From: an uncultured Rikenellaceae bacterium
GTDB taxonomy: Bacteria; Bacteroidota; Bacteroidia; Bacteroidales; VadinHA17
NCBI GenBank assembly: GCA_964568875.1
Contig: CAZMSH010000006.1
Span: 2,905-66,904, forward strand
DNA: 64,000 nucleotides
Direction: 5' to 3'
Under the pieces are notes generated by a model. That model had not been told where the DNA came from and searched no databases. It was given only the letters and a program-made list of their open reading frames with translations. Shown piece by piece: positions 4,134-55,900 of the stretch. The position numbers and the translations under genes were made by a program. Numbering within the stretch: position 1 is the stretch's first letter; each line of letters starts with the position of its first letter.

Positions 4134-4136
4134 TGA

Positions 4137-9100: not shown

Positions 9101-9322
9101 GGGTGTAAGGGTAAAGGGCATAGCGGCGTAATGTCATATTGACATAATGGCATGGGGCTTGGTGCATGGGTAAGGGGCATAGCGGCATAGCGGCGTAATG
9201 TCATATTGACATAACGGCATGGGGCATGGGGTTTTGGGAAAGGGTTGCGGGTTGCGGGGGATTTCAGATTTCAGATTTGCGTTGTGCTCTCATTCGGTCG
9301 AGTGGTCAGCCAAGGCTTCGGT
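9101..9322. repeat. Mosaic repeat locus L4 (two M3 modules, G-run block, GATTTCA array, M2 module)
   Basis: M3 at 9109..9157 and 9168..9231. G-runs at 9221..9260. GATTTCAGATTTCAGATTTGCG. M2 at 9285..9323, abutting the stop of the wHTH paralog. Confidence 0.85.
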
Positions 9323-9934
9323 TTATGATATCAGATCCAAGACTCTGCCCCAGGTAATGACTGATCCGGGCTGGCCGTCATCTTGTTTATAAGAATCATT
9401 TTCCGGGTTTATATCCTCAAGGTAATCTTCAAAATGGCCAGACAAACGCCAATTAACATGGTAATAATTATAATTCTGCCTGGGCATGGTTCTGTCCGGC
9501 TGCTGAGGCAGGGTACCCTTCAAGTCGAATTTTTTAATGAATTCCGGTCCTGTAAGGGGAAGCATTTGAAGCAGTAATGATTCCAGTTCAGGCTTGGTAA
9601 TCTTCTTTCTCAGGTTTAGAAGTATTTTAAGAATGCGCTCAATAATGGTCGGGTCGGTAAGGCCAATTGTGGCAATGGAGAACTCCGGATCATCATAATA
9701 ATATAGTCCGTCCCTACGGCTGACAGGTGCGTAAAAGCCCAGAATGTCACTACGCATTATTCTGATATCATTTTGAAGGGTTCTTTCGGATACTCTTCTG
9801 CTACTACCGGCGGATGCTGACAGTGCCGCTGTGCACTTATCTGCCAGTTCATTAATACTGCAGCCCCTTTTGCCTCCATACAGGCTGGAGTTAATGGTTT
9901 TGTATCTGATAAGAGATTTGTAAGTCGCCGGCAT
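9323..9934 (-). CDS. Winged-HTH transcriptional regulator, paralog 2
   Basis: ATG at 9934 gives MPATYKSLIRYKTINSSLYGG..., alignable over its full length with 820..1446. The upstream leader is conserved. Confidence 0.7.
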   Translation of the reverse strand: MPATYKSLIRYKTINSSLYGGKRGCSINELADKCTAALSASAGSSRRVSERTLQNDIRIMRSDILGFYAPVSRRDGLYYYDDPEFSIATIGLTDPTIIERILKILLNLRKKITKPELESLLLQMLPLTGPEFIKKFDLKGTLPQQPDRTMPRQNYNYYHVNWRLSGHFEDYLEDINPENDSYKQDDGQPGSVITWGRVLDLIS

Positions 9935-10015
9935 ATTCGAAGTTTCATAATTCAGAAGGAATGCAAGGAGGATCACTATAATTATACCCGTGTATTCCGT
10001 TAACTGAATCAAACC

Positions 10016-10023
10016 CAAAAATA
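10016..10023 (-). promoter_or_regulatory. Candidate -7 box (TATTTTTG) for wHTH paralog 2
   Basis: Same motif in the same conserved block as 1527..1534. Confidence 0.4.
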
Positions 10024-10082
10024 CAAAATTATGAATACAGAACGGGGCATGTTATAACAGCCAAAGGCAGCAATTGCTGCGC

Positions 10083-10173
10083 AGGGCAAAGGGCATGGGG
10101 CCAGCCTTCGCCAAGGACCTTCGCCAGGGCTACGGTCCTCGGAGAGCTTCGGCTGACAAAGAAGGGGGTGTAG
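10083..10173. repeat. Mosaic repeat locus L5 (module M1 long form)
   Basis: CATGGGGCCAGCCTTCGCCAAGGACCTTCGCCAGGGCTACGGTCCTCGGAGAGCTTCGGCTGACAAAG at 10094..10161. Confidence 0.8.
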
Positions 10174-10188
10174 TCCGTCTTTGCCTGA

Positions 10189-11379
10189 TTAGTAAAGGAA
10201 TCCAAACAGCCAGAGTGGGATTTCATTGCTGTAACCGGTTTCAATCCCGTCAACAACCAGGAAGGAATCGGGGATTCCCGCAATCTGTTTTCTGGTCTTG
10301 CTTCTTCCTCCAACCTCAAAGATGTAGCGGTTATTAACCAGGAAATCTCCCTGTTTTGGATAGTGAACTGAGTTATATGGTACAAGCTGACTCAGGAAGA
10401 ATGTCTCCCTAAGATTTCCCTTGTCCGGCCTGGTTCCTGCAAGGGTATACATGAGATTCGGATTCTGAAGATAAATCTTATCAGGCTTGGTAAGCAATCC
10501 TATACCCTTGCTGTCAGAATAGAGCAGACTTATAAGATTTGCTTCACCCATATAACGGAGATAATCTTTCAGGGTATTCCTGGCAATACCAATTCTTTCG
10601 CTCAGCTTATCAATATTAGGGGTAAAGGGGGCGCTTCCGGAGATTATGTACAGCAACTGCTTTATCTTATGAATATTCGACATACTGATACCGGCTGTGA
10701 AGGGCAGATCGTTTTCCAGGACAGACAGGATCACCTCATTCAGTTTCCTGTGATAGTTGTCGGTTCCCTCAAGAAAAAAAGGATAATATCCATGTTCAAG
10801 ATAGAGGTTCAGCCACTTTATCGGCTTTATCTCTTTCCAGATGTCCGGGGCAATTGTCTGATGTGAGCCCAGAATAGCTTCAAGAGTAACTACCGGAAAA
10901 TTTTTGTTATCGGCAATATTGATAAATTCCCTGAGCGACAGACCCGGAAGGTCATATGTTACACTCCTTCTCGACAAGTCAGCCCTGCCCGCTGTCAGAT
11001 GCAATAGCGAAGAGCCGGTATAGACAACCTTAAGGTCAGGCATTGAATCGTAAATATTCTTCAGTTCCTGCGACCATCGCGGATAATGATGCACCTCATC
11101 GATGAGTAAATATTTACCGCCATTCTTGGAAAATGAATCGGCAAATGAGAGGAGACTATTCTCAGAGAAGTAAAGATTGTCAAGGCTTACATATACATAT
11201 TGCTGATTTTTTAAGATTGTCTTCGCGTACTGCAGCAGCAATGTGGTTTTCCCAACACCTCTGCTTCCCTTAATACCGATCAGTCTTTCTTTCTGTTTAA
11301 GCCATTCGATCTGCGGACGAATATGTGTTTCGCTAACCATTTCGACAGATCTTGCAGATGTTTCAAATATGGCGTTCAT
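10189..11379 (-). CDS. P-loop ATPase, AAA_14/DUF4143-like, paralog 1
   Basis: Walker A GSRGVGKTT, Walker B LLIDEVH, C-terminal GDFLV...IFEVGG. Confidence 0.8.
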   Translation of the reverse strand: MNAIFETSARSVEMVSETHIRPQIEWLKQKERLIGIKGSRGVGKTTLLLQYAKTILKNQQYVYVSLDNLYFSENSLLSFADSFSKNGGKYLLIDEVHHYPRWSQELKNIYDSMPDLKVVYTGSSLLHLTAGRADLSRRSVTYDLPGLSLREFINIADNKNFPVVTLEAILGSHQTIAPDIWKEIKPIKWLNLYLEHGYYPFFLEGTDNYHRKLNEVILSVLENDLPFTAGISMSNIHKIKQLLYIISGSAPFTPNIDKLSERIGIARNTLKDYLRYMGEANLISLLYSDSKGIGLLTKPDKIYLQNPNLMYTLAGTRPDKGNLRETFFLSQLVPYNSVHYPKQGDFLVNNRYIFEVGGRSKTRKQIAGIPDSFLVVDGIETGYSNEIPLWLFGFLY

Positions 11380-11456
11380 TGCAAAGTGATTTATGGACTG
11401 ACCAAATATAGTATTTTTTTGGTTAATGCGTTAACCAATATTGATCTTTTTATGCA

Positions 11457-11745
11457 GGAAGGCGGGGGGAGGATGTCAGATATCTGAAATCAGATGTGCT
11501 CCCGCTGGTCGCGAGCCCGGCTGCGGCTCGGTTGCTCCCCTTCGGTCGAGGGGTCGCTGGGCCTGGAGCGGGATTGCTACGAAGGGCATGGGGCCAGCCT
11601 ACGCCAAGGACCTTCGCCAGGGCTACGGTCCTCGGGGAGCTTCGGCTGACAGGGCATGGGGCCAGCCTACGCCGAGGCTTCGGCTGACAGGGCATGGGGC
11701 ATGGAGCAAGGGGCAAGGGGTTGCTGGTTAAGTAGGAGGTGACGG
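11457..11745. repeat. Mosaic repeat locus L6 (M2 plus partial M2, M1 long, M1 short, GCATGGG/GCAAGGG units)
   Basis: M2 at 11497..11533, partial M2 at 11534..11557, M1 at 11587..11652 and 11655..11691. It fills the divergent spacer between two ATPase genes. Confidence 0.85.
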
Positions 11746-11817
11746 GCAATTTCTTACCACAATAATTGTTTTTGATAGCTGTATTGAGTAATTTTGCTCA
11801 GCACACTGAGTAATAAC

Positions 11818-13008
11818 ATGAAAGAGTACAGAAGACCTCACTACAGTAATCTTAAATCGCGGCTCGCGGAAAAGAGGAACTTTATACAGGTGATTGCCGG
11901 TCCGAGGCAGGTTGGCAAGACAACACTTATAAGGCAACTCCTGGAAAACAGAGTTGATTCAAGCAGTTATGTTTCGGCAGATTCGTACGAAGGTTCCGGC
12001 AGCAACTGGATAGAAAAGCACTGGGAGGCTGCCAGAATATTGTCACGGCAAAGAAATGCTTCTCACATACTTGCAATAGATGAGATTCAGAGAATTCCCG
12101 ATTGGAGTACCACGGTAAAAAAGCTGTGGGATGAGGATACTTTCAGTGGAAGTGAATTAAAGGTTATTATTTCCGGGTCATCAAATCTGCTGATAGCGGA
12201 AGGACTTACCGAGTCACTTGCCGGGCGCTACGAGATTACAACCCTCAGCCACTGGAGTCTTGCTGAAATGCATGAAGCTTTCGGATGGTCAGCAGAACAG
12301 TATACATGGTTCGGGGGTTACCCCGGGTCGGCAATCCTTGTAGGTAATGAACAAAGGTGGAAGCAGTATGTAAGAGATTCTCTTATTGAGCCAACGATAG
12401 CAAAAGACATTCTTATGATGACCCGCATTGACAAACCTGTCTTATTGAGACAGCTATTCAATCTCGGGTGCTCCTATTCAGGCCAGATACTCTCATACAA
12501 TAAGATGCTGGGGCAGTTGCAGGATGCCGGTAATACCGTAACCCTGGCCGGGTATCTCAATCTTCTAGACAGTGCAGGATTGCTGACAGGCATTGAGAAA
12601 TACTCGGGCAGCACAGTCAGACAGAAGCTCTCTAGTCCGAAACTGATGGTAAGGAACACAGCGCTGCTCTCATCATCATTCCAGGAGGGATTCGAACAGA
12701 TAAGGAACAGGCCGGAGTTATGGGGAAGAGTTGTTGAATCGGCCATTGGAGCACACCTGGTTAACAGATGCAGGGAGAATGACTGCAGGGTATGGTACTG
12801 GCGTGAAGGGAACGATGAGGTAGACTTCATTATACAAAACAGGAACGTCATTGCCGCTGTTGAGATCAAATCGGGGCCAACCATCAGAAAAAAGGGGTTT
12901 GACAGGTTCAGAAAACTATATCCCGATTCCAAAACTATTCTGGTTGGCGATGCAGGAATTCCATGGCAGGAATTTTTACTGATGGAACCGCAGGATATAG
13001 TGAGTTAG
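11818..13008 (+). CDS. P-loop ATPase, AAA_14/DUF4143-like, paralog 2
   Basis: First ATG at 11818 (the ORF-track start at 11794 is TTG). GPRQVGKTT, LAIDEIQ, C-terminal EVDFII...AAVEIKSG (D...ExK). Confidence 0.8.
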   Translation: MKEYRRPHYSNLKSRLAEKRNFIQVIAGPRQVGKTTLIRQLLENRVDSSSYVSADSYEGSGSNWIEKHWEAARILSRQRNASHILAIDEIQRIPDWSTTVKKLWDEDTFSGSELKVIISGSSNLLIAEGLTESLAGRYEITTLSHWSLAEMHEAFGWSAEQYTWFGGYPGSAILVGNEQRWKQYVRDSLIEPTIAKDILMMTRIDKPVLLRQLFNLGCSYSGQILSYNKMLGQLQDAGNTVTLAGYLNLLDSAGLLTGIEKYSGSTVRQKLSSPKLMVRNTALLSSSFQEGFEQIRNRPELWGRVVESAIGAHLVNRCRENDCRVWYWREGNDEVDFIIQNRNVIAAVEIKSGPTIRKKGFDRFRKLYPDSKTILVGDAGIPWQEFLLMEPQDIVS

Positions 13009-13246
13009 GTTGGTTATCAATGTAACTTTTTTGTTTGTAACGAATTTGTTACATGTATAAAAATCAAGAAGCAAACCAACAAAGAAAGAAAACAGATAGA
13101 CAACAGATTGGTAAGTCATTCAAGCAGAAGAAAAATTATGGGGTGCATTGGTTGGCGCTGTGGCCTTAGAACCGGAAGATAATGATGTGAAATTTCGAAA
13201 AACCTTCTGGAATATTAGTTTTACAAGAGGGAGGAGGGCTCAGGGC

Positions 13247-14833
13247 TCAGGTATTCATTTTCAGGTTTGCTTCGATCTGTTTTGCTGCGGGGGTGAGTGA
13301 GAGGCCGACTTTGCCGGTGCAGCATAGTTCATCGCAGAGCGCGTGGCCGATACTGTCCATCGCACCGATTACCTCGTCGAGGGGTATAAGGGTGTCAAAT
13401 CCGGCCATCGTAATATTGGCAGCAGTAATGGCATTGGTGGAGCCGAGGATATTCTTGCCAAGGCAGGGAACCTCAACCCTGCAGGCAACAGGATCGCAGA
13501 CCAGTCCGAGCAGATTTTGCAGGGCAAAGGAGGCTGCATTCAATGCTTCCTGAGCGGTACCCCCGAGCAATTGCACTACCCCGGAAGCGGCCATGGCGCT
13601 GGCAGCACCACATTCTGCCTGGCATCCTGCAACCTCAGCGGAGAAGGTGCTGCGGGTAGCAATGAAGACACCTGTGATACCGGCGGCCAGAAGGGCTTTG
13701 ATGCTCTCCTCTTCGCTAAATCCATACAAGTCGGCACAACTGAGCAGAGTGCCCGGAATGACGGCACAAGAGCCGGCCGTGGGTGCTGCCACAATTGGTT
13801 GAAAGGAGCTCTTCGACTCCATGACAGCGGCTGTATTGCGAATGACGGTATTCACCAGGGGAGAGTCAAGGATCTTCCGGTTTTCGACAGCCTGATCGAT
13901 AAGATGGCTCTGCCTTCCGAGAATCCTGTCGCTGTAGGAAGTACCTGCCAGTCCGGTTACCAGCGAGGCACGCATAACCTTAAGAATATCTGAGGCCAGT
14001 GCCCACACCTCATCCTTGCTGATATTTCCCCGTTGCGACTCATACAACAGAGCCATTTCCCAGAGTTGGGTCTGCGCATCAGGAAGGCTTTTAATCAGAT
14101 CAGAAGCACTTGTAAAAGGAACCACACAGTCAGCGCGCGACAGGACAGGCACGACAGGTCCGGCAGCCTGGGTTTTGTGTGCATTTAGAGAAGCAGACAT
14201 CTGGCTGAGGAGATTGCTGTCGATGGCTTCTGAAGCTTTTATGTTGATGAGAAAAGATTCACCTGTTGAGGCGATATCAATCAGTTCGATATTGCATTTA
14301 GAGTATTCCCTGAGGATAAATTCTTTCGTTTTGGCCGTATCCCCTTCGTAAAGTTTACCGGCGTAGAAGAAGTATTCGTAGTATCCTCCAAAAACGTTAA
14401 TCCGAAAGCCATTCAGTTCCTTCAGCCGTATCATTCCACCGCCGGTGGAGACAGCCACTATTTCTGTTGTTGCTCCGGTGACAGAGGTTACTGATATCCT
14501 GTAGGTATTGGGGTGATCGTTTTCATAGTCGGTAATACGGAACCGGAGGTCGACACCCTTTTCCCTGACCATACTTATTGAGTCAATTATAGTGTCAGAT
14601 TCCATGTCACAGCCAAGAATACCACCGGCGATTCCTATACCTGATCCCTGTCCGTCCCACGTCGTAGCCAGCGACCCGTCGGTACTGAAATCGACCGTGA
14701 AGGCTGCAATTTTTTCACCGGCAAGCTGTGAGGCGATCGAGCTGATGCGGTATGCTGCTGCGGTGTGCGAGCTTGATGGTCCCCGCATAACCGGACCAAG
14801 CACGTCGTTAAAGATACTGACAGGAGTGTTCAT
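13247..14833 (-). CDS. sdaA: Iron-sulfur-dependent L-serine dehydratase (fused beta+alpha)
   Basis: N-terminus SIFNDVLGPVMRGPSSSHTAAA. C-terminal half AAPTAGSCAVIPG...AEVAGCQAECG...DPV...VEVPC. Confidence 0.85.
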   Translation of the reverse strand: MNTPVSIFNDVLGPVMRGPSSSHTAAAYRISSIASQLAGEKIAAFTVDFSTDGSLATTWDGQGSGIGIAGGILGCDMESDTIIDSISMVREKGVDLRFRITDYENDHPNTYRISVTSVTGATTEIVAVSTGGGMIRLKELNGFRINVFGGYYEYFFYAGKLYEGDTAKTKEFILREYSKCNIELIDIASTGESFLINIKASEAIDSNLLSQMSASLNAHKTQAAGPVVPVLSRADCVVPFTSASDLIKSLPDAQTQLWEMALLYESQRGNISKDEVWALASDILKVMRASLVTGLAGTSYSDRILGRQSHLIDQAVENRKILDSPLVNTVIRNTAAVMESKSSFQPIVAAPTAGSCAVIPGTLLSCADLYGFSEEESIKALLAAGITGVFIATRSTFSAEVAGCQAECGAASAMAASGVVQLLGGTAQEALNAASFALQNLLGLVCDPVACRVEVPCLGKNILGSTNAITAANITMAGFDTLIPLDEVIGAMDSIGHALCDELCCTGKVGLSLTPAAKQIEANLKMNT

Positions 14834-14839
14834 GGTTCC

Positions 14840-15829: not shown

Positions 15830-15831
15830 GG

Positions 15832-16914: not shown

Positions 16915-17115
16915 AACATTAAATCCTTTTGTAAATTGAACCTGATATACCTGATGATGCGGCTACGATCATTGCCCTTTTCATATGCTTATATAAACAG
17001 CCCCAAAGTTATACATTGGGTTATTTCTTCCAAATTTTTCGTCATTCGCTTGCCAAAAGCACACATTCGTCGACTTTTTCTTTCAGGGTGTTCTTCCCAT
17101 GGGTAGTTTTGCCGA

Positions 17116-18249: not shown

Positions 18250-18367
18250 ATGAGGTAAACGGAAAAGGTGATGGGCTCAAGGCATGGGCATGGGCATGGG
18301 GCCAGCCTTCGCTGATGGCTACGGCTGACAAAGCATGGGGCATGGGGCATGGGGTTGCGGATTTTGG
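18177..18367. repeat. Mosaic repeat locus L7 (GCATGGA/GCATGGG, GGTAATC/GGTAAAT units, M1 short form)
   Basis: Heptamer runs. M1 at 18295..18333. Positions 18292..18355 are identical to 20365..20428. Confidence 0.85.
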
Positions 18368-20361: not shown

Positions 20362-20434
20362 TCAGGGCATGGGGCCAGCCTTCGCTGATGGCTACGGCTG
20401 ACAAAGCATGGGGCATGGGGCATGGGGTGCAGGT
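20362..20434. repeat. Mosaic repeat locus L8 (M1 short form plus GCATGGG x3)
   Basis: 20365..20428 is a perfect copy of 18292..18355. Confidence 0.85.
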
Positions 20435-29724: not shown

Positions 29725-30846
29725 ATGATAGAAAGAGTTCTGTTAAGTCAAATTTCGGAAGCTTTATTCAAGGGCAAGGTTATTCTGTTGTTTGGGCCTC
29801 GCCAGACTGGAAAAACCACAATAATCCGTGAGTTGTTGAAAGATTATCCTGACTCATCGCTCCTTTTGAATGCTGATGATCCTACTGTCAGACGGATTTT
29901 GGATACACCAAATACTCAGCAACTACGTCAGATTATCGGAGGCTATAAGATTGTATTTGTTGATGAGGCTCAACAGATTAACTCGATAGGCAAAACGGCA
30001 AAGTTATTGGTTGACACCTTCAGTGGAGTTCAACTGATTTTGAGCGGCTCTTCCTCTTTCGATCTTGCCTCCGCGACGCAGGAGCCACTTACAGGCAGAA
30101 AACGAACCTTCTTTATGTTTCCGGTTTCGTGGATGGAATGGCAAAATCATACAGGGTTTGTCAGGGCAGAGCAGGATCTGGAAAACAGGCTGGTATTCGG
30201 CATGTATCCCGATGTGCTTAACAATCCTGAACAACAGGAGGTTGTTCTACGGGAAATCGCCGACAGCTATCTGTACAAGGATGTACTGCTTTATGGAAAT
30301 CTGAAGAAACCTGATGAAATAAGGAATCTGTTGCAAGCTATTGCTTTTCAGGTCGGCAATGAAGTTTCATATAGTGAACTGGGCCAGATTACCGGTCTTG
30401 ATCCTAAAACTACAGAGCGATACATCAGTATATTGGAAAAGGCCTTCATCGTTTTTCGGTTAGGCTCATTCAGCCGGAATCTTAGAAACGAAATCAGGAC
30501 AGGCAGAAAAATCTACTTCTACGACAATGGAATACGGAATGCTGTAATTGGTCAGTTTCAGCCTTTATCTGTCAGGCAGGATACAGGTGCATTATGGGAG
30601 AATTTCATCATCTGTGAACGAAAAAAACGGAATGCTTACCAGCTTCATTTTGCCAATACGTTCTTCTGGAGAACCACACAACAACAAGAAGTTGATTACA
30701 TTGAAGAGTATAACGGTCAGCTGGCAGCTTATGAAATAAAACATAATGAAAAACGAAAAATCAAGATTCCAAAGACCTTTACCAATACATATAATGCTAA
30801 TATAGGTGTTGTTAACAGAATGAATTTCAGGGATTTTCTCCTTTAG
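29725..30846 (+). CDS. P-loop ATPase, AAA_14/DUF4143-like, paralog 3
   Basis: GPRQTGKTT, VFVDEAQ, C-terminal EVDYIE...AAYEIKHN (D...ExK). Confidence 0.8.
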   Translation: MIERVLLSQISEALFKGKVILLFGPRQTGKTTIIRELLKDYPDSSLLLNADDPTVRRILDTPNTQQLRQIIGGYKIVFVDEAQQINSIGKTAKLLVDTFSGVQLILSGSSSFDLASATQEPLTGRKRTFFMFPVSWMEWQNHTGFVRAEQDLENRLVFGMYPDVLNNPEQQEVVLREIADSYLYKDVLLYGNLKKPDEIRNLLQAIAFQVGNEVSYSELGQITGLDPKTTERYISILEKAFIVFRLGSFSRNLRNEIRTGRKIYFYDNGIRNAVIGQFQPLSVRQDTGALWENFIICERKKRNAYQLHFANTFFWRTTQQQEVDYIEEYNGQLAAYEIKHNEKRKIKIPKTFTNTYNANIGVVNRMNFRDFLL

Positions 30847-31861: not shown

Positions 31862-32072
31862 AGGTAACGGGGATGCTCCCACTCGGTCGCGAGCTCGACC
31901 GTCAGGCCGGTCTCGGTTCAGGTATCGGGTAAAGGAGAACTGGGAACGGGAAAAGGGGTGCATGTGGCAAAAGGGTAATCGGTGATCGGTAATCGGTACC
32001 AATTCGCAGCGCAGGCGAAGCGAAGCGTAGTACCGTACCGAAGGTCGGGAGTAAAGGGTCGCGGGTGTTGTG
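31862..32072. repeat. Mosaic repeat locus L10 (M2, GGTAATC units, M5 module)
   Basis: M2 at 31874..31918. GGTAATCGGTGATCGGTAATCGG. M5 GCGAAGCGTAGTACCGTACCGAAGGTCGGGAG at 32020..32051. Confidence 0.85.
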
Positions 32073-34116: not shown

Positions 34117-34623
34117 TTACCTGGGAAGTACTACTGAATCAATAACATGTATTACACCATTTGAACCTTTCAGGTCTGCTGCAACAACGTAAGCCGAGTT
34201 GCCTGATTCGTCAGTAAGTTTAACCTTGCCCATATCGAGAGTAACCGTAAGCTTACCTCCGCTGACGGTAGTGACAACAGCCTTTCCGTTTCCTGCATTT
34301 ACTGCAGCAATAACAGCAGCAGCATCAAGATTACCACTTACCACATGATAGGTAAGGATCTTTGCCAACTGTGACTTGTTCTCGGGCTTAAGAAGACCCT
34401 CAACAGTTCCTTCAGGAAGTTTTGCAAATGCTGCATTTGTCGGAGCAAAAACGGTAAATGGCCCTTCACTCTTAAGTGTGGCTACCAAATCAGCTGCCTT
34501 AACCGCAGCTACCAAAGTTGTATGATCTGCCGATCCAACAGCTATATCAACAACATCTTTATCCTGGCCGAAAGCACTCATCGTGAACACCGAGGCAATC
34601 ATAATAGCGAATAACTTTTTCAT
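34117..34623 (-). CDS. Fasciclin (FAS1) domain protein, single domain
   Basis: [17 protein letters not shown] and YHVVSG motifs. Signal peptide. Confidence 0.85.
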
Positions 34624-36949: not shown

Positions 36950-37320
36950 GGGGAAGGGCGTAGGATGGCGTAGGATGGCGTAAAGGGCGTAGGATGGCGT
37001 AAAGGGCGTAGGATGGCGTAAATGGCGTAAAAGGCGTATAATGGCGTAGCAGGGGAGAAGGGCGTAAATGGCGTAAAAGGCGTAAAGGGCGTAGAAGGGC
37101 GTAAAAGGCAGGATGGCGTAGGATGCCGTAGCTGGGCAGGGGATTTCAGATATCAGGTTAACGATTTCAGATTTGCGTTGATGATTTCACTGCGGTCAAA
37201 CAGAGTTGTGGACGAAAAGGGAAATTAGCGGAGTGAAGGGTGCAGGTTGCAGGTTGCAGGGTGCAGGTTGCAGGTTACAGGTTGCAAGTTACAGGTTGCA
37301 GGTTACTGGTTTTTATTTTA
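36950..37320. repeat. Mosaic repeat locus L11, the largest array (~370 bp)
   Basis: About 16 GGCGTA-based 9-10-nt units (36957..37130), a GATTTCA block (37141..37190), a degenerate M2-like segment, then 10 tandem TTGCAGG-type heptamers (37240..37309). Confidence 0.9.
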
Positions 37321-43938: not shown

Positions 43939-44901
43939 ATGACAAAAGAGATCCCTGCAGAGATGTTGAACACCGATGCGTTCATCGGGGAAAAAGTAAA
44001 TGAGATAAGGCATGCCGTTGGCGACGGCACAGCTATAAACGCCCTTTCGGGAGGCGTTGATTCATCGGTGGTAACACTGCTCGGGCACCGGGCACTTGGC
44101 AATAAGCTAAGGACAGTCTTCATACAGAACGGCCTTATGCGTGAAGAAGAACCCGAGAGGGTCCGGTCTTTTTTCAGGGAACTTGGTGTTGAAGTTGAAA
44201 TAGTGGATGCCGAAGAGGCATTTCTGTCGGCACTCAGCGGAATTACCGATCCGGAAGAGAAGAGAGAAGCCATAACCCAGGCATTCTACAAGGATGTATT
44301 CGGCAGGCTGGTTAGGGAGAGCAATGCCAGGCACCTGCTACAGGGAACTATACTGACCGACATTGACGAAACCGTGGCAGGCATCAAGCGTCAGCACAAT
44401 GTGTTTGAGCAGCTGGGAATCGATCCGCAGCAGGCTTTCGGATACAAGATAATCGAGCCCCTGATTCAGTTGCGAAAAGACGGGGTAAGGAAGGCTGGCA
44501 GGGCACTTGGCCTTACAGAGGAGTTCTATGCCCGTATTCCCTTCCCCGGTCCGGCCCTGGCTGCACGTATAATCGGTGAAGTTACTCGTGAGAAACTTGA
44601 TATCGTCAGGAAGGCAACTGTCATTACCGAAAAATGGCTGCGCGACAGCAAGGCGTTTCAATACCTGGCTATACTGCATGAAGACCGTGTTACCGGTATG
44701 CGTGACGGGAAACGCGATTTTGGCCGGCAGATAGAGGTAAGGTGCTGGGACAGCGTTGATGCCCGCACCGCCACACCAACAAACTTATCGTATGACACCC
44801 TGACGGGACTGGCGAACGAGATACTGGCCAAAGTACCGGGCGTTGTCAGCGTAACATACAACATCGCCAGCAAGCCACCATCGACTATAGAAGCGGTCTG
44901 A
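43939..44901 (+). CDS. Stand-alone GMP synthase-like ATP pyrophosphatase (PP-loop) subunit, no GATase domain
   Basis: PP-loop LSGGVDSSV, DPEEKR, QGTILTD, IKRQHNV, PFPGPALAARI, C-terminal SKPPSTIE. Confidence 0.75.
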   Translation: MTKEIPAEMLNTDAFIGEKVNEIRHAVGDGTAINALSGGVDSSVVTLLGHRALGNKLRTVFIQNGLMREEEPERVRSFFRELGVEVEIVDAEEAFLSALSGITDPEEKREAITQAFYKDVFGRLVRESNARHLLQGTILTDIDETVAGIKRQHNVFEQLGIDPQQAFGYKIIEPLIQLRKDGVRKAGRALGLTEEFYARIPFPGPALAARIIGEVTREKLDIVRKATVITEKWLRDSKAFQYLAILHEDRVTGMRDGKRDFGRQIEVRCWDSVDARTATPTNLSYDTLTGLANEILAKVPGVVSVTYNIASKPPSTIEAV

Positions 44902-45012
44902 GGATTTCTGAAATCAGATATCAGATATCAGATATACGATTTAAGATTGCTCCCGCTGGTCGCGAGCTCGGCCAAGGCCTCGGTTTACGATTTACGATTT
45001 GAGATTTGAGAA
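44902..45012. repeat. Mosaic repeat locus L13
   Basis: CAGATAT x3, M2 at 44948..44985, then TACGATT x2 and TGAGATT x2 heptamers. Confidence 0.85.
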
Positions 45013-46755: not shown

Positions 46756-46757
46756 TC

Positions 46758-48134: not shown

Positions 48135-48161
48135 GTGGCAGGCTGCAGGGGATTGTTCTTG

Positions 48162-48818: not shown

Positions 48819-48939
48819 GACGCGTGGTTTTTAGTTAGAAAAAAGAATATTCAATAGTATGAACTTTTTTGGTGAAAGTCAAGAACAGAATTCTGGCTCA
48901 GCGCGGGGGGCGGCATACAATCGCAACCCAGAGGGGTGC

Positions 48940-49025
48940 AATAATAATGGAACCGAGAGCCCCCCTCAATTGTTGTGCGGGCGGAGCGAAGCGTAGTCCC
49001 GCACCGAAGGTCGGTAGCACGGAGG
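48940..49025. repeat. Mosaic repeat locus L12 (M5 module)
   Basis: GCGAAGCGTAGTCCCGCACCGAAGGTCGGTAG at 48986..49017, 29/32 identical to 32020..32051. Confidence 0.65.
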
Positions 49026-50573: not shown

Positions 50574-50619
50574 ATTCCTGAATATGATTTATTTACTAAA
50601 GACAAATATATACAAAAAG

Positions 50620-50652
50620 AAAAGAAGGCCGACTTTTCAGGTACGGCCTTCT
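50620..50652 (-). terminator. Rho-independent terminator of the fasciclin gene
   Basis: Minus strand: GAAGGCCG-loop-CGGCCTTC followed by TTTTCTTTTTT. Confidence 0.7.
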
Positions 50653-50691
50653 GGTGAATATAACGGATGCCTGCGGCTTATAGCTGAAGCA

Positions 50692-51699
50692 TTACTTAGA
50701 GAGATCGGGAAGTATAACCCTATCAATGACATGAACAACACCATTGGTTGCCTGAACGTTGAGGAGTCCGGGCACCAGCGAAGCTTCGCGTCCGTTGGCA
50801 TCGGTTATACCAAGAGTCTCAAGAGAGAGCTCAAAAGTTCCGTTAAGAGTTGTTACTGATCCGCTTGAAAGATCACTCGAAAATGCTCTTCCATCAACAA
50901 CATGATAGAGGAGTACCTTGGTGAGCAGATCTACAGGTATGTCATCCAGGCTGGCAAAACCTTGCTCTCCAAGCAGAGCAATGAAAGCTGCATTAGACGG
51001 AGCAAATACTGTGAAGGGACCACCGCTTGCAAGTACATCTGTAAGACCAGCTTTAATGACAGCCTGAACAAGTATTGAAAACTCCGGATCAAGACTTAAA
51101 GCAAGTTCAACCAGGTTGAGCGTGGGAGGAAACAACACCTTGTCGATTACGTGTATGACGCCATTGCGGGCTTTAATGTCAGCAATGAAGATATTGGCAT
51201 CATTGATTGAAGGATTAAGGGCGTTGATCTCTACAAATGAACCACCGGCTGTTTCAAAGAAGCCGTTAGTCAGCTGATTGCTGTAAATCATTCCGTTGAA
51301 TACGTGATACAAAAGTATTTCCTGCAGGTTGGGAACCGAGGCAATATTTTTCGGAGTAAGACCCAGTTGTGCGAAAGCAACATCTGTCGGAGCAAATATT
51401 GTCATCTGATTTCTTGACACTAAACCAGCCAGACCAGCGCGGGCCAGAGCAGAGTTAAGAGTACCGAAAGTTGGATTGGCTTTCGGATCGAACTTTGAAG
51501 GATCTTCCTCAATATTGAAATAATCCGGCTCTCCAAAAGAAGCAAGAACCTGAACAATATCATCAGCTGTTTCCAATTCGGGACCATCAGGACGAATATC
51601 CTCTTTTGAACAAGAAGCAGCAAAAACTGCAAAGGCGGATACCAGGGCAATCTGGAGAATCCGTGTGCGACCAATATTCTTTAATGTTTCTGTTTTCAT
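50692..51699 (-). CDS. Two-domain fasciclin (FAS1) lipoprotein, paralog A
   Basis: The ATG at 51699 (MKTETLKNIGRTRI...) matches the paralog start. Lipobox AASC. Two copies of the TVFAP(T/S)N..F and YHVV motifs. Confidence 0.85.
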   Translation of the reverse strand: MKTETLKNIGRTRILQIALVSAFAVFAASCSKEDIRPDGPELETADDIVQVLASFGEPDYFNIEEDPSKFDPKANPTFGTLNSALARAGLAGLVSRNQMTIFAPTDVAFAQLGLTPKNIASVPNLQEILLYHVFNGMIYSNQLTNGFFETAGGSFVEINALNPSINDANIFIADIKARNGVIHVIDKVLFPPTLNLVELALSLDPEFSILVQAVIKAGLTDVLASGGPFTVFAPSNAAFIALLGEQGFASLDDIPVDLLTKVLLYHVVDGRAFSSDLSSGSVTTLNGTFELSLETLGITDANGREASLVPGLLNVQATNGVVHVIDRVILPDLSK

Positions 51700-51952
51700 G
51701 GTTATCATTTTTTGTTGTTGTTATTAATTCATGTCAAACAATAAACATAAAAGATACCGTTTTTGTTCATATTTATGCTACATTTATTATTCATTTATTT
51801 TTATCTGCCTCTTTTTCTGTTTTTTAGAAACGTGCATAAAATTATCCTTGCCACCTTTATTCTAACTGCTATTTTTTTGCCTTACCAGAACCGGTTATTT
51901 AATTTCAGCATCTTTACGGGCTGCTTACTCTCTTAAAACTACAATAAGCCCT

Positions 51953-52642
51953 TTACTGCAGTCTGAAGGATATTGGTAAGAAGAACCTGACCCTTACCGG
52001 CCTGGCATTATGCCTTCCGGGAGTCCAGGCAGGTGACGAAGAGACAACCCTCAGTGCTTCTTCATCGAGATAGTGGTCCACTCCTTTAATGACCTTGACG
52101 TTTGATACTGATCCATCAGGTTCTATCATGAAACCTATGACAACACGGCCCTGTATTCCGTTCTGTTTTGGTATCTCAGGATACCTGATCCTTTCGTTTA
52201 CCCACTGATTAAACTTATTCAGGTCACCTCCCCTGAATTCAGGCATCTCTTCAACAGATACAAAATGATCAGGTTCCAGGGGTGTTGTGTCGCGCGGAAC
52301 CGGGTTATAGATGAAAATAGAAAGATCAGGAAGATTTCCCGGGTCGCCTGAGAAGAGATCAAAAACATTTGTAGCCAGAGATGAGTCATCAATTATGTTA
52401 ATAAGCTCTGCAAATACCGGCATCTGTATCGGTTCCGGCTCAGGCTCCTTTTCTATTGTCTGCGGAATCTCTTCAACATCAAATGATTCCCATCCAGAAT
52501 TCAGGAAAGGATTATCTTTCAATTCATTTGTTGACCATTCAAATGCTATAAGTACAAAGCTCAGCACTATAGCTGTTCCCAATAGGAAGAAAGTACTCTT
52601 CTGCTTTTCCATATTGGCCTGCGGGGTTTTCTTGATTGTCAT
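51953..52642 (-). CDS. Energy transducer TonB
   Basis: N-terminal TM anchor, Pro/Glu-rich linker, C-terminal GIQGRVVIGFMIEPDGSV...PAWTPG. Confidence 0.85.
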   Translation of the reverse strand: MTIKKTPQANMEKQKSTFFLLGTAIVLSFVLIAFEWSTNELKDNPFLNSGWESFDVEEIPQTIEKEPEPEPIQMPVFAELINIIDDSSLATNVFDLFSGDPGNLPDLSIFIYNPVPRDTTPLEPDHFVSVEEMPEFRGGDLNKFNQWVNERIRYPEIPKQNGIQGRVVIGFMIEPDGSVSNVKVIKGVDHYLDEEALRVVSSSPAWTPGRHNARPVRVRFFLPISFRLQ

Positions 52643-52754
52643 GATTTTCAGGTTTTAGTTAAAAACAAGGTTGTTTTAACTTTTTTTAACAAACATCATA
52701 CCAGTTTAATCCGCACCAGGTCGGAAAAGAAATATTAAGCCTTGTTCCAAAAAG

Positions 52755-52787
52755 AAAGAAGGCCGGACTGATTAAGTCGGCCTTCTT
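52755..52787 (-). terminator. Rho-independent terminator of fasciclin paralog B
   Basis: Minus strand: GAAGGCCGAC-loop-GTCCGGCCTTC followed by TTTCTTTTT. Confidence 0.7.
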
Positions 52788-52824
52788 TGAACATAACAAA
52801 TGCCAGCGGCTTATACCTGAAGCA

Positions 52825-53829
52825 TTATTTTGAGAGATCGGGAAGTATTACCCTGTTGATAACATGTACGACACCGTTTGATGCCTGAACGTTTAGCAGA
52901 CCGGGCAACAATGAAGCCTCACGACCATTGGCGTCTGTTATAGTGAGAGTCTCAAGAGAGAGATCGAATGTACCGTTGAGAGTTTCTACCTGACCGCTTG
53001 AAAGATCACTCGAGAAAGCATAACCTCCTACTACATGGTAGAGAAGCACATTAGTCAGCAAATCTACAGGAATAGCATCCAGGCTCGCGAAGCCTAACTC
53101 ATCCAGGAGAGCAACGAAAGCTTCATTAGTCGGAGCAAACACAGTAAACGGACCTTCATTTGCAAGCACATCGGTCAAACCAGCCTTAATAACAGCCTGC
53201 ACCAGTATTGAGAATTCAGGATCGAAGCTTAAAGCCAGCTGAACCAGGTTCATTGAAGGCGGGAACATTACCTTATCAATTATGTGAATCACACCATTAC
53301 GAGCCTGTATGTCAGTGCTTATAATATCTGATTCATTCACTTTCGGACCATCAGCCAGAGTAATTTCAACATATGATCCGCCAACTGTCGGAAACCATGC
53401 CTCACTTAGCTGATTACTGAAAACCTTACCATTAATAACATGGTAAAGAAGAATCTCCTGAAGGTTGGGAACCGAAGCAATATTTGCGGGACTCAGACCC
53501 AACTCAGCAAAAGCAGCATCTGTCGGTGCAAAAATTGTAAGCTGATTTCTTGCAACAACGCTAGCCAGACCACTACGGCCCAGTGCAGCATTAAGAGTAC
53601 TGAAAGTAGGCTTCAAACCCTTGTTTCCCTTAACCTCTTCACCATCAAAGAAATCAGGTTCTCCATAAGACTCAAGAATGTCAATAATAGTACCTTCATT
53701 CTCTACTACTGAAATATCAGGAGCAATATCATCCTTTGAACAGGATGCCAAAGAAACCACGAGAGCAGATACCAAAGCAATCTGGAAAATTCGTGTTCTG
53801 CCTAGATTTTTAACTATCTCTTTTTTCAT
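52825..53829 (-). CDS. Two-domain fasciclin (FAS1) lipoprotein, paralog B
   Basis: Collinear with 50692..51699, including the identical C-terminus NGVVHVI(D/N)RVILPDLSK. Confidence 0.85.
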   Translation of the reverse strand: MKKEIVKNLGRTRIFQIALVSALVVSLASCSKDDIAPDISVVENEGTIIDILESYGEPDFFDGEEVKGNKGLKPTFSTLNAALGRSGLASVVARNQLTIFAPTDAAFAELGLSPANIASVPNLQEILLYHVINGKVFSNQLSEAWFPTVGGSYVEITLADGPKVNESDIISTDIQARNGVIHIIDKVMFPPSMNLVQLALSFDPEFSILVQAVIKAGLTDVLANEGPFTVFAPTNEAFVALLDELGFASLDAIPVDLLTNVLLYHVVGGYAFSSDLSSGQVETLNGTFDLSLETLTITDANGREASLLPGLLNVQASNGVVHVINRVILPDLSK

Positions 53830-54170
53830 TTTAATGTATTTTTAAGTTAGTATTTTTGTCATGTCATTCAATAAACATAAACGATCCGGTTTTTGTTCAT
53901 ATTTTATCTATTTATTTTATTCATTTATTTGTTATAGTCTCATTATCTGTGTTTTGTAAGAAATATATTTTTTGGATAAAATTTGAATAGTACTATGCAA
54001 CTGGCAGAGATAATACCTGTTTTCTACTCATAAAAGACCCTGTTTACAGCTTAAAGAGCTAAGAAAAGAGTCATAGCAGTATGCGTGAGTGATGAGAAGG
54101 GGTAAAATGGATTAGCCGGCTCCCTGATCGGTTACCGGCTATTCAAAAATCTCTTCGTGGACACTCTTTT

Positions 54171-55055
54171 CTATCTCAGCACCAGCTCTCTTCCTTTGAA
54201 CCTGAGATTCATCCATGCAATAATTACCCCTGCGGTTGCAAACATGATCAGACTGTATATGGCCGGAGAGATTGTCATGGTAGGATTGTGCAACAGGGTT
54301 GCGGCAATGGCAATTCCCAGAGTGCCGTTCTGAATCCCCGACTCAATCGATATTGTTATACTCTGGTCTATTCTCAGCCTGAAGAGTCTGGCTGAAAAAT
54401 AGCCCACCAGCAACATAGCCAGGTTCAGCGAAAGAGCCACCGGTCCGGCCTGCTGAAAAAAGTTAACGAAGTTTTCCTTATCTGCGAGGATTGCTGCAAG
54501 GATTATCACAAAAAGCAACACGCCCGATGCAATCTTAACCGGTTTGCTCATTTTCTCTGCAAACGACTGTGCTTTGGCCCGGATGAACATTCCGATTGTT
54601 ACCGGAACAAGTGTTATTATTATAACGCTTATCATTGTCTTCAATACCGGGAGTGGGACATATTCACCAACCTCGAGGAAGTGGGAAAGAGAAAAGTTGA
54701 CTATCAGGGGTATGGTTATAACCACTATCAGGCTTGAGATGGCCGTAAGGGTAATTGATAGAGCCGTGTCTCCCCGTGATATGTGTGTGATCAGATTCGA
54801 GGTCGGTCCACCCGGGCATGCAGCCAGTATCATAATACCTACCGCCAGCTCTGGTGTGCGCATCGGTATCAGCATCAGAAGACCGAATCCGACCAGGGGT
54901 AGGATAATAATCTGGTTTATTATTCCGATAGCTGCTGCTTTGGGATAAACAGCCACTCTCCTGAAGTCAGCAGGAGTAAGCGACAATCCCATTCCCAGCA
55001 TAATAATACCAAGCGAGATTGGAAGCATAAGATCTGTAAGGAAGTTGGTTTCCAT
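54171..55055 (-). CDS. Bile acid:sodium symporter (BASS) family transporter
   Basis: 294 aa, multi-TM, GMGLSLTPADFRRV start typical of the family. Confidence 0.8.
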   Translation of the reverse strand: METNFLTDLMLPISLGIIMLGMGLSLTPADFRRVAVYPKAAAIGIINQIIILPLVGFGLLMLIPMRTPELAVGIMILAACPGGPTSNLITHISRGDTALSITLTAISSLIVVITIPLIVNFSLSHFLEVGEYVPLPVLKTMISVIIITLVPVTIGMFIRAKAQSFAEKMSKPVKIASGVLLFVIILAAILADKENFVNFFQQAGPVALSLNLAMLLVGYFSARLFRLRIDQSITISIESGIQNGTLGIAIAATLLHNPTMTISPAIYSLIMFATAGVIIAWMNLRFKGRELVLR

Positions 55056-55230
55056 AGTCGTGTGGTTTTTTGTTTCAGGTTAACACGTGAATGGTTCTTC
55101 AGTCATTGGTTGACAGGCAAATATAAACTAATATTGGAAATCCGCAATCCCTGCCTATTATAACATACCGGCCCCCGGACCGGTTCTGTTGACAGACAGA
55201 CAGAAATTAGGATTGACCGTTTATTATCAG

Positions 55231-55238
55231 TATCTTTG
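55231..55238 (+). promoter_or_regulatory. Candidate -7 box TATCTTTG upstream of the cold-shock-domain gene
   Basis: Matches TAnnTTTG, about 40 nt upstream of the ATG at 55277. Confidence 0.35.
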
Positions 55239-55276
55239 CCCGAAATCTGAGTAATAATCAAACCGGGACAAAATAT

Positions 55277-55729
55277 ATGGGAAGATCACAGGAGTCATTC
55301 AACAAGAAGGAAGTAAGGAACAAAAAGGCCAAAAAGAGGAAAGAGAAAGAAGAGAAGAGACTTGCAAAAAAAGAACAGGGAAAGAACTCCTTCGAAGATA
55401 TGATTGCCTATGTTGACGAATTTGGAAACATTACAGATACCCCACCCGATCCCACCAGAAAAAAATCAACCATAAATCCCGATGATATTGTACTGGGAGC
55501 GACAGCCCGGGAACCGGGGCCGGAAAATGACAGGGAAAGAACAGGCATTGTTTCCCACTATAATGATTCCAAGGGTTACGGTTTTATCAGGGACCTTATA
55601 ACAGGAGAAAGCGTTTTCGTACATGCAAACAACTTGTCGGAGCCAATTGCAGAAGGCAACAAGGTTTCATTCGAGATTGGTGCGGGACAGAAGGGCCCGG
55701 CTGCCAATAATGTAAAGATTATCAAATAA
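55277..55729 (+). CDS. Cold-shock domain protein with Lys-rich N-terminal extension
   Basis: GIVSHYNDSKGYGFIRD...VFVHANN (CSD RNP motifs). Confidence 0.85.
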   Translation: MGRSQESFNKKEVRNKKAKKRKEKEEKRLAKKEQGKNSFEDMIAYVDEFGNITDTPPDPTRKKSTINPDDIVLGATAREPGPENDRERTGIVSHYNDSKGYGFIRDLITGESVFVHANNLSEPIAEGNKVSFEIGAGQKGPAANNVKIIK

Positions 55730-55784
55730 GCTCAGATCACAGGTATCAGAGCTACTGATCCCTGAACCAGGCAAACCGGGCTCA

Positions 55785-55900
55785 CTCACGATACCCGAAC
55801 CGAGACCGGCCTGACGGTCGAGCTCGCGACCGAATGGGAGCATACCCGATACCCGATACCTGGCACCCCACACCCGGTACCCGACACCCGATACCCCAAA
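55785..55900. repeat. Mosaic repeat locus L14 (inverted orientation)
   Basis: M2 in reverse at 55798..55842, 44/45 identical to 31874..31918. C-run heptamers ATACCCG etc. at 55843..55897. Confidence 0.85.

Follow-up and report, generated by a model that had tools for sequence, protein, structure and literature searches.

Repeats similar in form to the one reported here are described from cyanobacteria. The small dispersed repeats SDR1-8 of Nostocaceae are reportedly non-coding and 21-27 nt long and lie both within runs of tandem heptamers and inside other repeats; some are said to have a predicted hairpin. Their mobility is reportedly deduced from comparative positions, and the mobilising enzyme is said not to be known. 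PMC5861425 cites Elhai et al. 2008 (Genome Res 18:1484) for the SDRs of Nostocaceae. Intergenic heptamer (STRR-type) arrays with the unit TAACTGA have been described in Cyanobacteria, Beggiatoaceae and a few Bacteroidetes (MacGregor 2015, PMC4679880). 'Atypical' repetitive extragenic palindromes (REPs) of the Bacteroidetes-specific subclass 2.6 lack GTAG and form weak structures (Quentin et al. 2018, PMC6006769), and BrickBuilt is a MITE of Porphyromonas gingivalis (PMC4596501). Here we describe M2, a real family of very small non-coding elements across Bacteroidales that is apparently new to description.

The window, the whole 64-kb stretch of DNA that was analysed, contains four full M2 copies, one degenerate copy and one truncated tandem unit (five to six copies in 64 kb), all of them intergenic. 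The window host, which belongs to the Bacteroidota, has type IX secretion (T9SS) and has been encountered in metagenomes of sludge and sediment. All copies listed in the first-pass annotation are present in the window at the coordinates it gave, and its observation of the repeat is confirmed. The copy at 31874-31918, in a divergent intergenic region, reads T-GCTCCC-ACTC-GGTCGCGAGC-TCG-ACCGTCAGGCCGGT-CTCGGTT and scores 45.2 bits with our sequence model; metagenome contig L148 carries an identical copy. The copy at 55798-55842 (48.2 bits) is inverted and sits between convergent genes for a cold-shock-domain (CSD) protein and an AbgT transporter. These two near-identical copies, 24 kb apart and in opposite orientation, differ at 1 of 45 positions once the latter is reverse-complemented, exactly as first reported, and their similarity stretches over 65 nt at 94%. 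At the intergenic site syntenic to the 55798 copy in a related MAG (locus L015), a different M2 subfamily is found in the opposite orientation. The other full copies are 44948-44985 (36.1 bits; GCT-loop subfamily, centre TCGGCCAAGGC) and 11497-11533 (29.9 bits; centre CCGGCTGCGG). The latter opens a head-to-tail pair; the truncated second unit at 11534-11557 (+ strand; 7.2 bits, E=4.3) abuts it at GGTT/GCTCCC (slashes mark boundaries here and below), and only its 5' box is recognisable (GCTCCCCTTCGGTCG), the sequence being divergent beyond. Dispersal in both orientations was correctly recognised at the outset, with the 11497, 31874 and 44948 copies on the + strand and the 55798 copy on the - strand.

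Two further sites are decayed. The copy at 9285-9323 (+ strand; TGCTCTC-ATTC-GGTCGAGTGG-TCAGCCAAGGCT-TCGGTT) has several mismatches in the boxes and is not recovered by the sequence model at E<=10. The degenerate version previously placed at about 37178 is at best a relic: a local alignment (37162-37197, + strand, score 41) covers an 18-nt flank, which the 9285 copy has in identical form, and then a decayed 5' box in which 12 of 16 aligned positions agree, but the 3' half is missing and the sequence model gives no match.

According to TRF, heptamer arrays adjoin the 9285, 44948 and 55798 copies, and another lies 56 nt downstream of the 31874 copy. Short arrays of GGCATGG, GGGTTGC and GATTTCA (9216-9284) directly precede the 9285 copy, and an array of ATACCCG (7.9 units, 55843-55896) adjoins the 5' end of the inverted 55798 copy. 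The 44948 copy is embedded in an acgattt/cagatat array, with ATCAGAT/ACGATTT units upstream (44913-44947; strain variants differ by +7 nt) and TTTACGA/GATTTGA units downstream (44986-45011; one strain variant is +21 nt). The two parts are in register with each other, and excision of the copy leaves the array in register.

Short GC-rich patterns often match by chance in high-GC genomes, and matches to M2 in high-GC sequences outside Bacteroidales are at chance level. The pattern TGCTCCCNNNNGGTCGNG, with up to two mismatches, occurs six times in the window against 0.98 expected, and none of 100 shuffles reached six; two of the six matches (42855 and 45635, with two mismatches each) are at chance level and are not M2 copies. 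Beyond the window, genome and metagenome scans identified about 95 strict copies and 149 model matches in Bacteroidales MAGs and metagenome contigs. The two-box pattern, with 23 specified bases, has 70+ occurrences, and nearly all of them are in low-GC contigs of Bacteroidales type that stem from many independent assemblies. Identical copies recur across independent samples, and identity of a 21-nt box spans environmental Bacteroidales to gut Muribaculaceae. We therefore rejected chance similarity or assembly artefact, to which we attach a negligible probability, as M2 is present in independent assemblies. Plasmid and phage sequences gave only chance-level matches and viral contigs gave none. 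A literature search with the box sequence returned no match, and none of the collections searched showed M2 as a piece of an IS terminal repeat.

The M2 unit has the layout T/GCTCCC-N3-4-GGTCGCGAGC-TCG-[variable centre]-CTCGGTT/C, is about 31-55 nt long and has no coding capacity. The boxes are essentially invariant, whereas the loop and the centre vary. A 5' stem-loop of invariant sequence (GCTC-CC-[loop N3-4]-GG-TCGC-GAGC) is separated from the centre by a conserved TCG linker, and the 3' tail is an invariant CTCGGTT, or GGTT in Muribaculaceae variants. Three subfamilies each travel with particular heptamers: the GCT loop and GGCCAAGGCC with acgattt, ATTC and GCCTTCGGC with ccgttta, and ATTC and CCGGC..GCCGGT with caggtat. 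The centres range in length from 4 to 27 nt and in form from TAAA to 8-bp hairpins. The claim that the centre always keeps an inverted repeat holds only in part. A hairpin is usual, and of the 29 distinct centres that are 8 nt or longer, 17 have a fold that beats 95% of shuffles, but the commonest metagenomic form has the centre TAAA and no hairpin; the central palindrome is therefore dispensable. GGCC-AA-GGCC and AGCC-AA-GGCT do exist as inverted repeats, but a 2-nt loop cannot close, which leaves effectively 3 bp and a tetraloop. The compensatory change proposed for this hairpin was not borne out: centres are swapped wholesale, with at least eight unrelated stems, and not stepwise.

Folding predictions give two stem-loops on either strand in most copies, and these could be the structure of an M2 RNA, either a structured small RNA or an element acting in cis (a stabiliser, terminator or processing site). 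The inner CC/GG pairs show one compensatory change (CT/AG in L068:7757), and several C>T changes are compatible with G-U pairing. The location of M2 is also consistent with such a role: the distance to a stop codon is at most 60 nt for many copies, and M2 prefers convergent over divergent regions (28 vs 12). We nevertheless consider an RNA function quite unlikely. The boxes are conserved as sequence and covariation there is uninformative, the central hairpin can be lost, and M2 is also nested in other non-coding repeats. Apart from a genuine tRNA, no Rfam family (tRNAs, ribozymes and CRISPR repeats included) reached its gathering score when the window and 10 loci were scanned, and nothing relevant appeared at E<=10; ARAGORN called no tRNA within the elements. 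The same goes for an intrinsic terminator: no T-tract follows CTCGGTT, the number of terminator-like sites around M2 copies is zero, and M2 shows no orientation bias towards genes that run in the same direction on both sides (20 sense, 16 antisense), which also counts against an RNA role in general.

Conservation of sequence rather than structure, together with independence of orientation, would fit a role at the DNA level. A host protein that acts as a dimer (of the nucleoid, regulatory or restriction-modification kind) might bind the core palindrome of 8-10 bp, (G)CGAGCTCG(C), which shares bases with TCGCGA and GAGCTC; selection would then hold the copies identical. Every full copy with the TCG linker does contain CGAGCTCG, and most contain GCGAGCTCGC. 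We regard such a double-stranded binding site as highly doubtful, because the palindrome partners do not covary (TCG is retained where GTGAGC occurs, and GCGAGC where TCA occurs), the asymmetry of the conserved region is strong (TGCTCCC vs CTCGGTT), and the second half of the palindrome is missing from Muribaculaceae variants (GAGC-TAAAGG). It also leaves unexplained the clean insertion with exact boundaries in hairpin loops and arrays.

These boundaries are identical in five unrelated contexts. The first comprises heptamer arrays of at least three unit types. The second is a hairpin repeat, CCCCCATG...CATGGGGG, for which empty paralogues exist: those in L152 and L141 read TTTTTTT/CATG, and the filled form reads TTTGTT[33 nt]CATG. 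The third is a MITE-like element of about 430 nt carrying one, two or four M2 units. The fourth is the T-loop of pseudo-tRNA units, GGAGGGA-TT-[M2]-CAAACC, where the true tRNA-Arg has GGAGGGA-CT-CAAACC, and the fifth is the loop of GTAG-type REP hairpins in Muribaculaceae. Eighteen copies (element lengths 35-47 nt) have a period-7 array on either side, and in every one of them the arrays are in register only after exact removal of GCTCCC...CTCGGTT. There is therefore no target-site duplication, a feature that the first-pass annotation had put forward for checking. Terminal inverted repeats are also absent, the ends TGCTCCC and CTCGGTT not being inverted repeats of each other. Of 71 flanking contexts, 69 have T at position -1, 51 have T at position -2 and 48 have C at position +1. 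Head-to-tail tandems with the junction GGTT/GCTCCC are frequent; copies are solo or head-to-tail, and inverted doublets are not the arrangement. Spread by insertion or recombination rather than by local duplication, as originally argued, is thus strongly supported by the five contexts, the filled and empty paralogues and the restored register. The earlier mobility and hairpin interpretation as a whole is partly supported.

M2 could instead be an enzyme-less, passive repeat that owes its spread and homogenisation to nothing but slippage, unequal crossing-over and gene conversion, acting between heptamer arrays of the same unit. The pairing of subfamilies with particular heptamers points this way, since homology-driven gene conversion would suffice to produce it without a dedicated enzyme. 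In the same direction point the similarity between the 31874 and 55798 copies, which reaches about 10 nt into the flanks, array differences between strains in multiples of 7, and the tandem unit duplications seen. However, the same exact boundaries occur where there are no heptamers (the hairpin loop, the tRNA T-loop, the REP loop and the MITE-like element), and the strong T/.../C junction preference and the 21-nt box identity across families are hard to obtain through homology-driven copying alone. On balance, we find a purely passive origin unlikely.

Because of the clean insertion in heptamer repeats and hairpin loops, M2 looks like miniature mobile DNA. The reading that we favour, and hold to be slightly better than an even bet, is a Bacteroidales-wide, very small, non-coding and non-autonomous insertion element moved in trans, with an enzyme of the HUH/Y1 type acting on single-stranded DNA as the candidate. 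The unit is inserted as a clean block directly after T (usually TT or AT) and usually before C. It favours three kinds of target: unit boundaries in heptamer arrays, loops belonging to other hairpins, and the 3' end of an existing copy, where insertion gives the head-to-tail tandems. Clean insertion is thus shown, as are the anatomy, distribution, exact boundaries, nesting and lack of orientation bias, and what is inferred is movement in trans, the single-strand mechanism and the type of enzyme. A trans-acting, sequence-specific enzyme would recognise the invariant stem-loop and the GGTT end; the first candidate would be an HUH/Y1 transposase of the IS200/IS605-RAYT kind. After insertion, slippage alters the number of heptamers, and the subfamilies are probably spread and made uniform in part by recombination between arrays.

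Several observations weigh against such a mini-element. No polymorphism between filled and empty orthologous sites was found among the compared strains, whose differences at M2 sites consist only of heptamer copy number or duplication of a 177-nt unit. The occurrence of both orientations within a few kb speaks against the strong replication-strand bias typical of IS200/IS605, and the invariance of the boxes across families could also reflect a host function. No candidate enzyme was identified: about 600 kb of M2 loci and flanking DNA showed no RAYT or HNH gene, none of the copies had a RAYT gene next to it, and neither these loci nor the window showed an ORF with an HUH...Y motif. That no transposase or other mobile gene lies near M2 copies is, on the other hand, in keeping with a non-autonomous unit.

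In comparison with known systems, M2 is analogous both to the cyanobacterial SDRs and to REPs. Like SDRs, it is far below MITE size, non-coding, embedded in heptamers and nested in other repeats; it differs in host (Bacteroidales), in length (31-55 vs 21-27 nt) and in its modular build of invariant boxes and a replaceable centre. The arrays that host M2 resemble those of the STRR type in being short intergenic 7-nt runs with different units side by side; PMC4679880, however, covers arrays and not an inserted module, and the units at M2 sites are different (caggtat, ccgttta, acgattt, gcatggg). Bacteroidales MITEs such as BrickBuilt, with their internal tandem repeats, are likewise non-autonomous intergenic repeats, but MITEs exceed 100 nt and have terminal inverted repeats and target duplications, of which M2 has neither.

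With REPs and REPINs, which are linked to RAYT (TnpA_REP, HUH Y1), M2 shares the character of a short, GC-rich extragenic hairpin repeat that is non-autonomous, high-copy, divided into many subfamilies and enriched at gene ends and in convergent regions. It lacks the GT[AG]G or CGTC foot, whereas neighbouring Muribaculaceae REPs do have GTAG. The absence of GTAG is shared with subclass 2.6 REPs; none of those tabulated in PMC6006769 resembles M2. A REP consists of one imperfect palindrome, 20-40 nt long, is often paired with an inverted partner (REPIN/BIME) and is usually species-specific; M2 combines two different stem-loops with an asymmetric tail, and its boxes are conserved across families. 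Finally, like IS200/IS605 elements and their miniature derivatives (PATEs), M2 has hairpins near its ends, lacks terminal inverted repeats and target-site duplication, inserts directly 3' of a short target and would share their affinity for single-stranded or hairpin DNA. Its target is only T or TT (1-2 nt) instead of a defined tetra- or pentanucleotide, it has no associated tnpA/tnpB and no evident replication-strand bias, and it is ten-fold smaller than PATEs.

The five copies of M2 reported in the window by the first-pass annotation are present in the sequence. M2 is a non-coding repeat of about 31-55 nt that runs from GCTCCC to CTCGGTT around a variable centre. Four full copies (11497-11533, 31874-31918, 44948-44985 and 55798-55842) score 30-48 bits with a sequence-only model; the copy at 9285 is degenerate, and the unit at 11534 is truncated and joined head-to-tail. 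A further degenerate version proposed at 37178 matches the 9285 copy in a flank and in a portion of the 5' box, and in nothing beyond these. A degenerate pattern for the 5' box matches the window six times (0.98 matches expected; 0/100 shuffles reach six). The reported near-identical pair was also recovered: once the 55798 copy is reverse-complemented, a single base out of 45 separates it from the 31874 copy, and their similarity extends to 65 nt at 94%. All copies of the window are intergenic, and 7-nt tandem arrays detected by TRF adjoin the 9285, 44948 and 55798 copies, and another lies downstream of the 31874 copy, at a distance of 56 nt.

A genome scan with the pattern TGCTCCC-N3-4-GGTCGCGAGC placed M2 in at least nine Bacteroidales MAGs among the matches listed, the remaining listed matches being chance occurrences in high-GC genomes. 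A two-box scan of metagenomes yielded 56 loci, and a scan of viral contigs gave 0 matches. The totals are at least 95 strict copies and at least 49 distinct full-length sequences, with 149 model matches within 603 kb. The consensus is T/GCTCCC-N3-4-GGTCGCGAGC-TCG-centre-CTCGGTT/C, where slashes mark the boundaries. The 5' box is predicted to fold as GCTC-CC-loop-GG-TCGC-GAGC, the loop being its sole variable part, and both this hairpin and a central one are recurrent predictions on both strands. One compensatory change (CC/GG to CT/AG) was found among the boxes, the others being single changes; because the boxes hardly vary, a covariation test of two alternative box helices was undecided. In Muribaculaceae, shorter variants keep the 21-nt box unchanged and continue with TAAAGGTT or ACTTCGTGGTT. 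A related module of the L044 type, composed of ACCTTCGCCTTTCAGGCTCCGGT and GAGCTCGCCTTCGGCTCGGTT, is found at L165 (e.g. L165:4275-4326), L121, L139 and L135. Only its 3' half, GAGCTCGCCTTCGGCTCGGTT, is common with M2. The module often lies directly 5' of M2 copies of the CTCCC...GGTCGTGAGC subfamily, an arrangement suggestive of module shuffling between families.

The centre of M2 is 4-27 nt long. Among centres of 8 nt or more, 29 are distinct, and 17 of them outperform 95% of shuffles in folding, so the central palindrome noticed earlier stands for the latter; the commonest metagenomic form (14 copies) has TAAA as its entire centre, which shows that the hairpin, though common, can be dispensed with. 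The compensatory change proposed for this hairpin is not supported: centres differ by replacement, without stepwise compensation, and their stems are of at least eight unrelated kinds. For the palindrome GCGAGCTCGC, compensation was likewise rejected, as its partner positions do not co-vary.

M2 is well supported as a discrete inserted unit. Five settings that are unrelated to one another show identical boundaries: heptamer arrays built from three or more unit types; a hairpin repeat, CCCCCATG...CATGGGGG, with M2 in its loop; a MITE-like element of about 430 nt with terminal inverted repeats, which holds 1, 2 or 4 M2 units; the T-loop of pseudo-tRNA units adjoining a genuine tRNA-Arg; and the loop of GTAG-type REP (repetitive extragenic palindrome) hairpins in Muribaculaceae. 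Empty paralogues of the hairpin repeat (TTTTTTT/CATG) occur on the same metagenome contigs as filled ones (TTTGTT/GCTCCC...CTCGGTT/CATG). The tRNA-Arg gene reads GGAGGGA-CT-CAAACC, whereas the pseudo-tRNA units read GGAGGGA-TT-M2-CAAACC. For the 18 copies flanked on each side by a period-7 array (element lengths 35, 37, 44, 46 or 47 nt), the register of the arrays was regained in 18/18 only on exact removal of GCTCCC...CTCGGTT. M2 has therefore been inserted cleanly at a unit boundary, and the target-site duplications considered in the first-pass annotation are not found; a TT duplication in caggtat arrays is excluded by the same test. A CTCG "duplication" on either side of the centre was also dismissed, the empty core GAGCTCGGTT being absent from the data. 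In 71 distinct contexts, T is found at -1 in 69 and at -2 in 51, and C at +1 in 48. Head-to-tail tandems with the junction GGTT/GCTCCC are frequent, which fits the GGTT end of M2 itself as a landing site. The five settings, the filled and empty paralogues and the register result all agree with the earlier proposal of spread by mobility or recombination rather than by local duplication.

Between conspecific strains, only the number of heptamers varies (+7, +21 or +70 nt), or a 177-nt unit is duplicated. No difference in presence or absence of M2 between strains was found in Logan contigs, in contigs encoding identical proteins or in an all-against-all locus comparison. The arrays at 44900-45010 of the window have 7 and 21 additional nt in another strain, and a GATACCC/GGTACCT array of about 330 nt (L123:3150-3480) differs by exactly 70 nt (10 units) from that of L158, the two contigs being 96% identical overall. 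The 177-nt pseudo-tRNA units (L124:4620-5060, L061, L127, L143 and L153) adjoin a tRNA-Arg(ACG) gene and open with a duplicate of the tRNA 3' end, broken up by M2; of the near-identical contigs, L061 and L127 carry one unit and L124 two. M2 subfamilies go with particular heptamers, and recombination between arrays therefore probably contributes to the spread of M2. At L015, a "Rikenellaceae" MAG locus syntenic with the window at 52.8-57.5 kb (about 82% DNA identity), the CSD/AbgT intergenic region has an M2 of another subfamily, in another heptamer and in the opposite orientation.

Could M2 act at the RNA level? Its preference for intergenic regions between convergent genes (28 versus 12 divergent) is predicted by avoidance of deleterious insertions. 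Between gene pairs of the same direction its orientation is unbiased (20 sense versus 16 antisense), it shows no terminator signature, and a search for a known RNA family in Rfam gave no match; an RNA-level function is thus unlikely. A search for RNA runs containing this organism retrieved none. A tRNA-derived origin was rejected as well. GCTC...TCGGT...GAGC resembles a D-arm and CTCGGTTC a T-stem, but neither ARAGORN nor the Rfam tRNA model detects anything, and loops in the centre have 3-6 nt instead of 7. The "GGTTCAAACCCC" look of L061 and L124 arises because M2 sits in the T-loop of the pseudo-tRNA.

The closest relatives of the window are Bacteroidales MAGs, and its DNA is present in sludge and sediment metagenomes. 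In Pfam scans, about 45 window proteins correspond to ordinary chromosomal genes, with no transposase, reverse transcriptase or HUH protein among them; several window proteins have a T9SS type A sorting domain. A cyanobacterial source of the window, which the heptamer arrays had suggested, was rejected on the sorting domains and the Bacteroidales relatives. Those domains, the sludge and sediment occurrence and the synteny with L015 together indicate an environmental member of Bacteroidales. A regular-expression search of the M2 loci (about 600 kb) in all six frames found no ORF with an HUH/Y1 motif. Housekeeping genes lie between clusters of M2 copies, and no recurrent neighbour family emerged from 491 clustered ORFs, which gave only spurious ORFs made by the repeats and housekeeping genes. 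In Muribaculaceae MAGs, one M2 A-box lies directly upstream of a YhcG/DUF1016 nuclease gene.

Other repeats and paralogous genes accompany M2. A second module family, probably the repeat M1 of the first-pass annotation, consists of GGGGCCAGCCTTCGC...GGCTGAC hairpins flanked by GCATGGG heptamers (4135-4198, 10089-10168, 11582-11714, 18292-18355 and 20365-20428); no difference separates the 18292 and 20365 copies across 64 nt, and those at 10089 and 11582 have a nested insertion, GACCTTCGCCAGGGCTACGGTC. Positions 1-4139 are a unit of about 2 kb duplicated in tandem, including a HipA-like kinase gene (2172-3140), with three 59-nt repeats spaced by 2020 and 2060 nt and 77-84% similarity of the DNA between them. 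At 36953-37311, a 9/19-nt tandem array (GGCGTAGAAT...) is followed by a 10-unit AGGTTGC heptamer array without M2. Metagenome contig depth rises here about 20-fold (220 and 329 versus about 10), which indicates that such repeats are numerous at other places in the communities. Three AAA_14/DUF4143 ATPase genes are paralogous (10189-11379, minus strand; 11794-13008 and 29725-30846, plus strand), two of them diverging from the intergenic region with the 11497 M2 pair. Another paralogous pair (820-1575 and 9323-10018; 81% DNA identity) encodes a protein of 231-251 aa of unassigned kind. Fasciclin-domain paralogues are found at 50692-51708, 52825-53829 and 34117-34623, and a similar GC-rich hairpin after each of them (AGAAGGCCG...CGGCCTTCT at 50621 and 52757) looks like an ordinary terminator. 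The M2-bearing element of about 430 nt (L129, e.g. L129:1240-1720, L150, L155, L159 and L161) has inverted ends (CTAACACGGACGG... and ...CCGCCGTGCCGTTAG) and a well conserved core of about 200 nt. Positioned 5' of genes for FISUMP-type lipoproteins, it carries 1-4 M2 units, gives rise to spurious 100-aa ORFs and has no Rfam match; candidate identities are a MITE and a structured RNA. Intergenic mosaics in Muribaculaceae MAGs (L040, L067, L110, L042 and L072) combine canonical GTAG REPs (GTAGGGGCGACAG...), 8-nt AACATAAG arrays and an A-box variant of M2.

The miniature insertion modules grouped as M2 are a real and widespread family in Bacteroidales that is apparently undescribed, with a 21-nt box kept from environmental members to gut Muribaculaceae. 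More tentatively, and we consider this rather doubtful, M2 might represent a new class of minimal mobile DNA. A single-stranded form of its core of about 33 nt, one invariant stem-loop plus the GGTT end, would move by cut-and-paste, with no duplication, to T-rich positions within hairpin loops and heptamer arrays. This would be the work of a conserved host-encoded enzyme, for example of a Y1/HUH subclass common to Bacteroidetes and Cyanobacteria (Quentin et al.). If so, the same machinery would also underlie the long-unexplained landscape of small dispersed repeats (SDRs) and heptamers in cyanobacteria. Which enzyme recognizes the M2 box becomes a testable question, the stem-loop and GGTT end offering a concrete substrate for candidate HUH/Y1 proteins. 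M2 units and variable heptamer arrays also break short-read assemblies, give rise to spurious ORFs and produce length differences between strains, in steps of 7 nt, close to where genes begin or end; this may affect expression.

On defining features, M2 fails as a REP, MITE, terminator, Rfam family or known IS; integron attC, CRISPR, dif/Xer sites and uptake sequences are dismissed by its anatomy. No match to the M2 box was found in the literature or in plasmid or phage records. The closest analogues are the cyanobacterial SDRs, very small repeats that, like M2, occur within heptamer arrays and also nest in other repeats; Elhai et al. (cited in PMC5861425) reportedly described such repeats in 2008. 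We know of no explanation of how SDRs spread. An SDR-like landscape is now seen in an unrelated phylum, with exact boundaries, clean insertion without duplication, and empty and filled paralogues. Next closest are the systems of REPs and their associated HUH/Y1 transposases (RAYTs). Y1 subclasses 1.2 and 2.4 are common to Cyanobacteria and Bacteroidetes, and the Bacteroidetes subclass 2.6 has atypical REPs without GTAG (Quentin et al., PMC6006769); no M2 match is found among the repeats tabulated there. Heptamer arrays have been described in a few Bacteroidetes (MacGregor, PMC4679880). The absence of inverted ends and of duplication, the hairpins and the fixed base 5' of the insertion point are features that M2 shares with single-strand transposition of the IS200/IS605 type, and from this insertion style we infer an HUH/Y1 enzyme as the first candidate.
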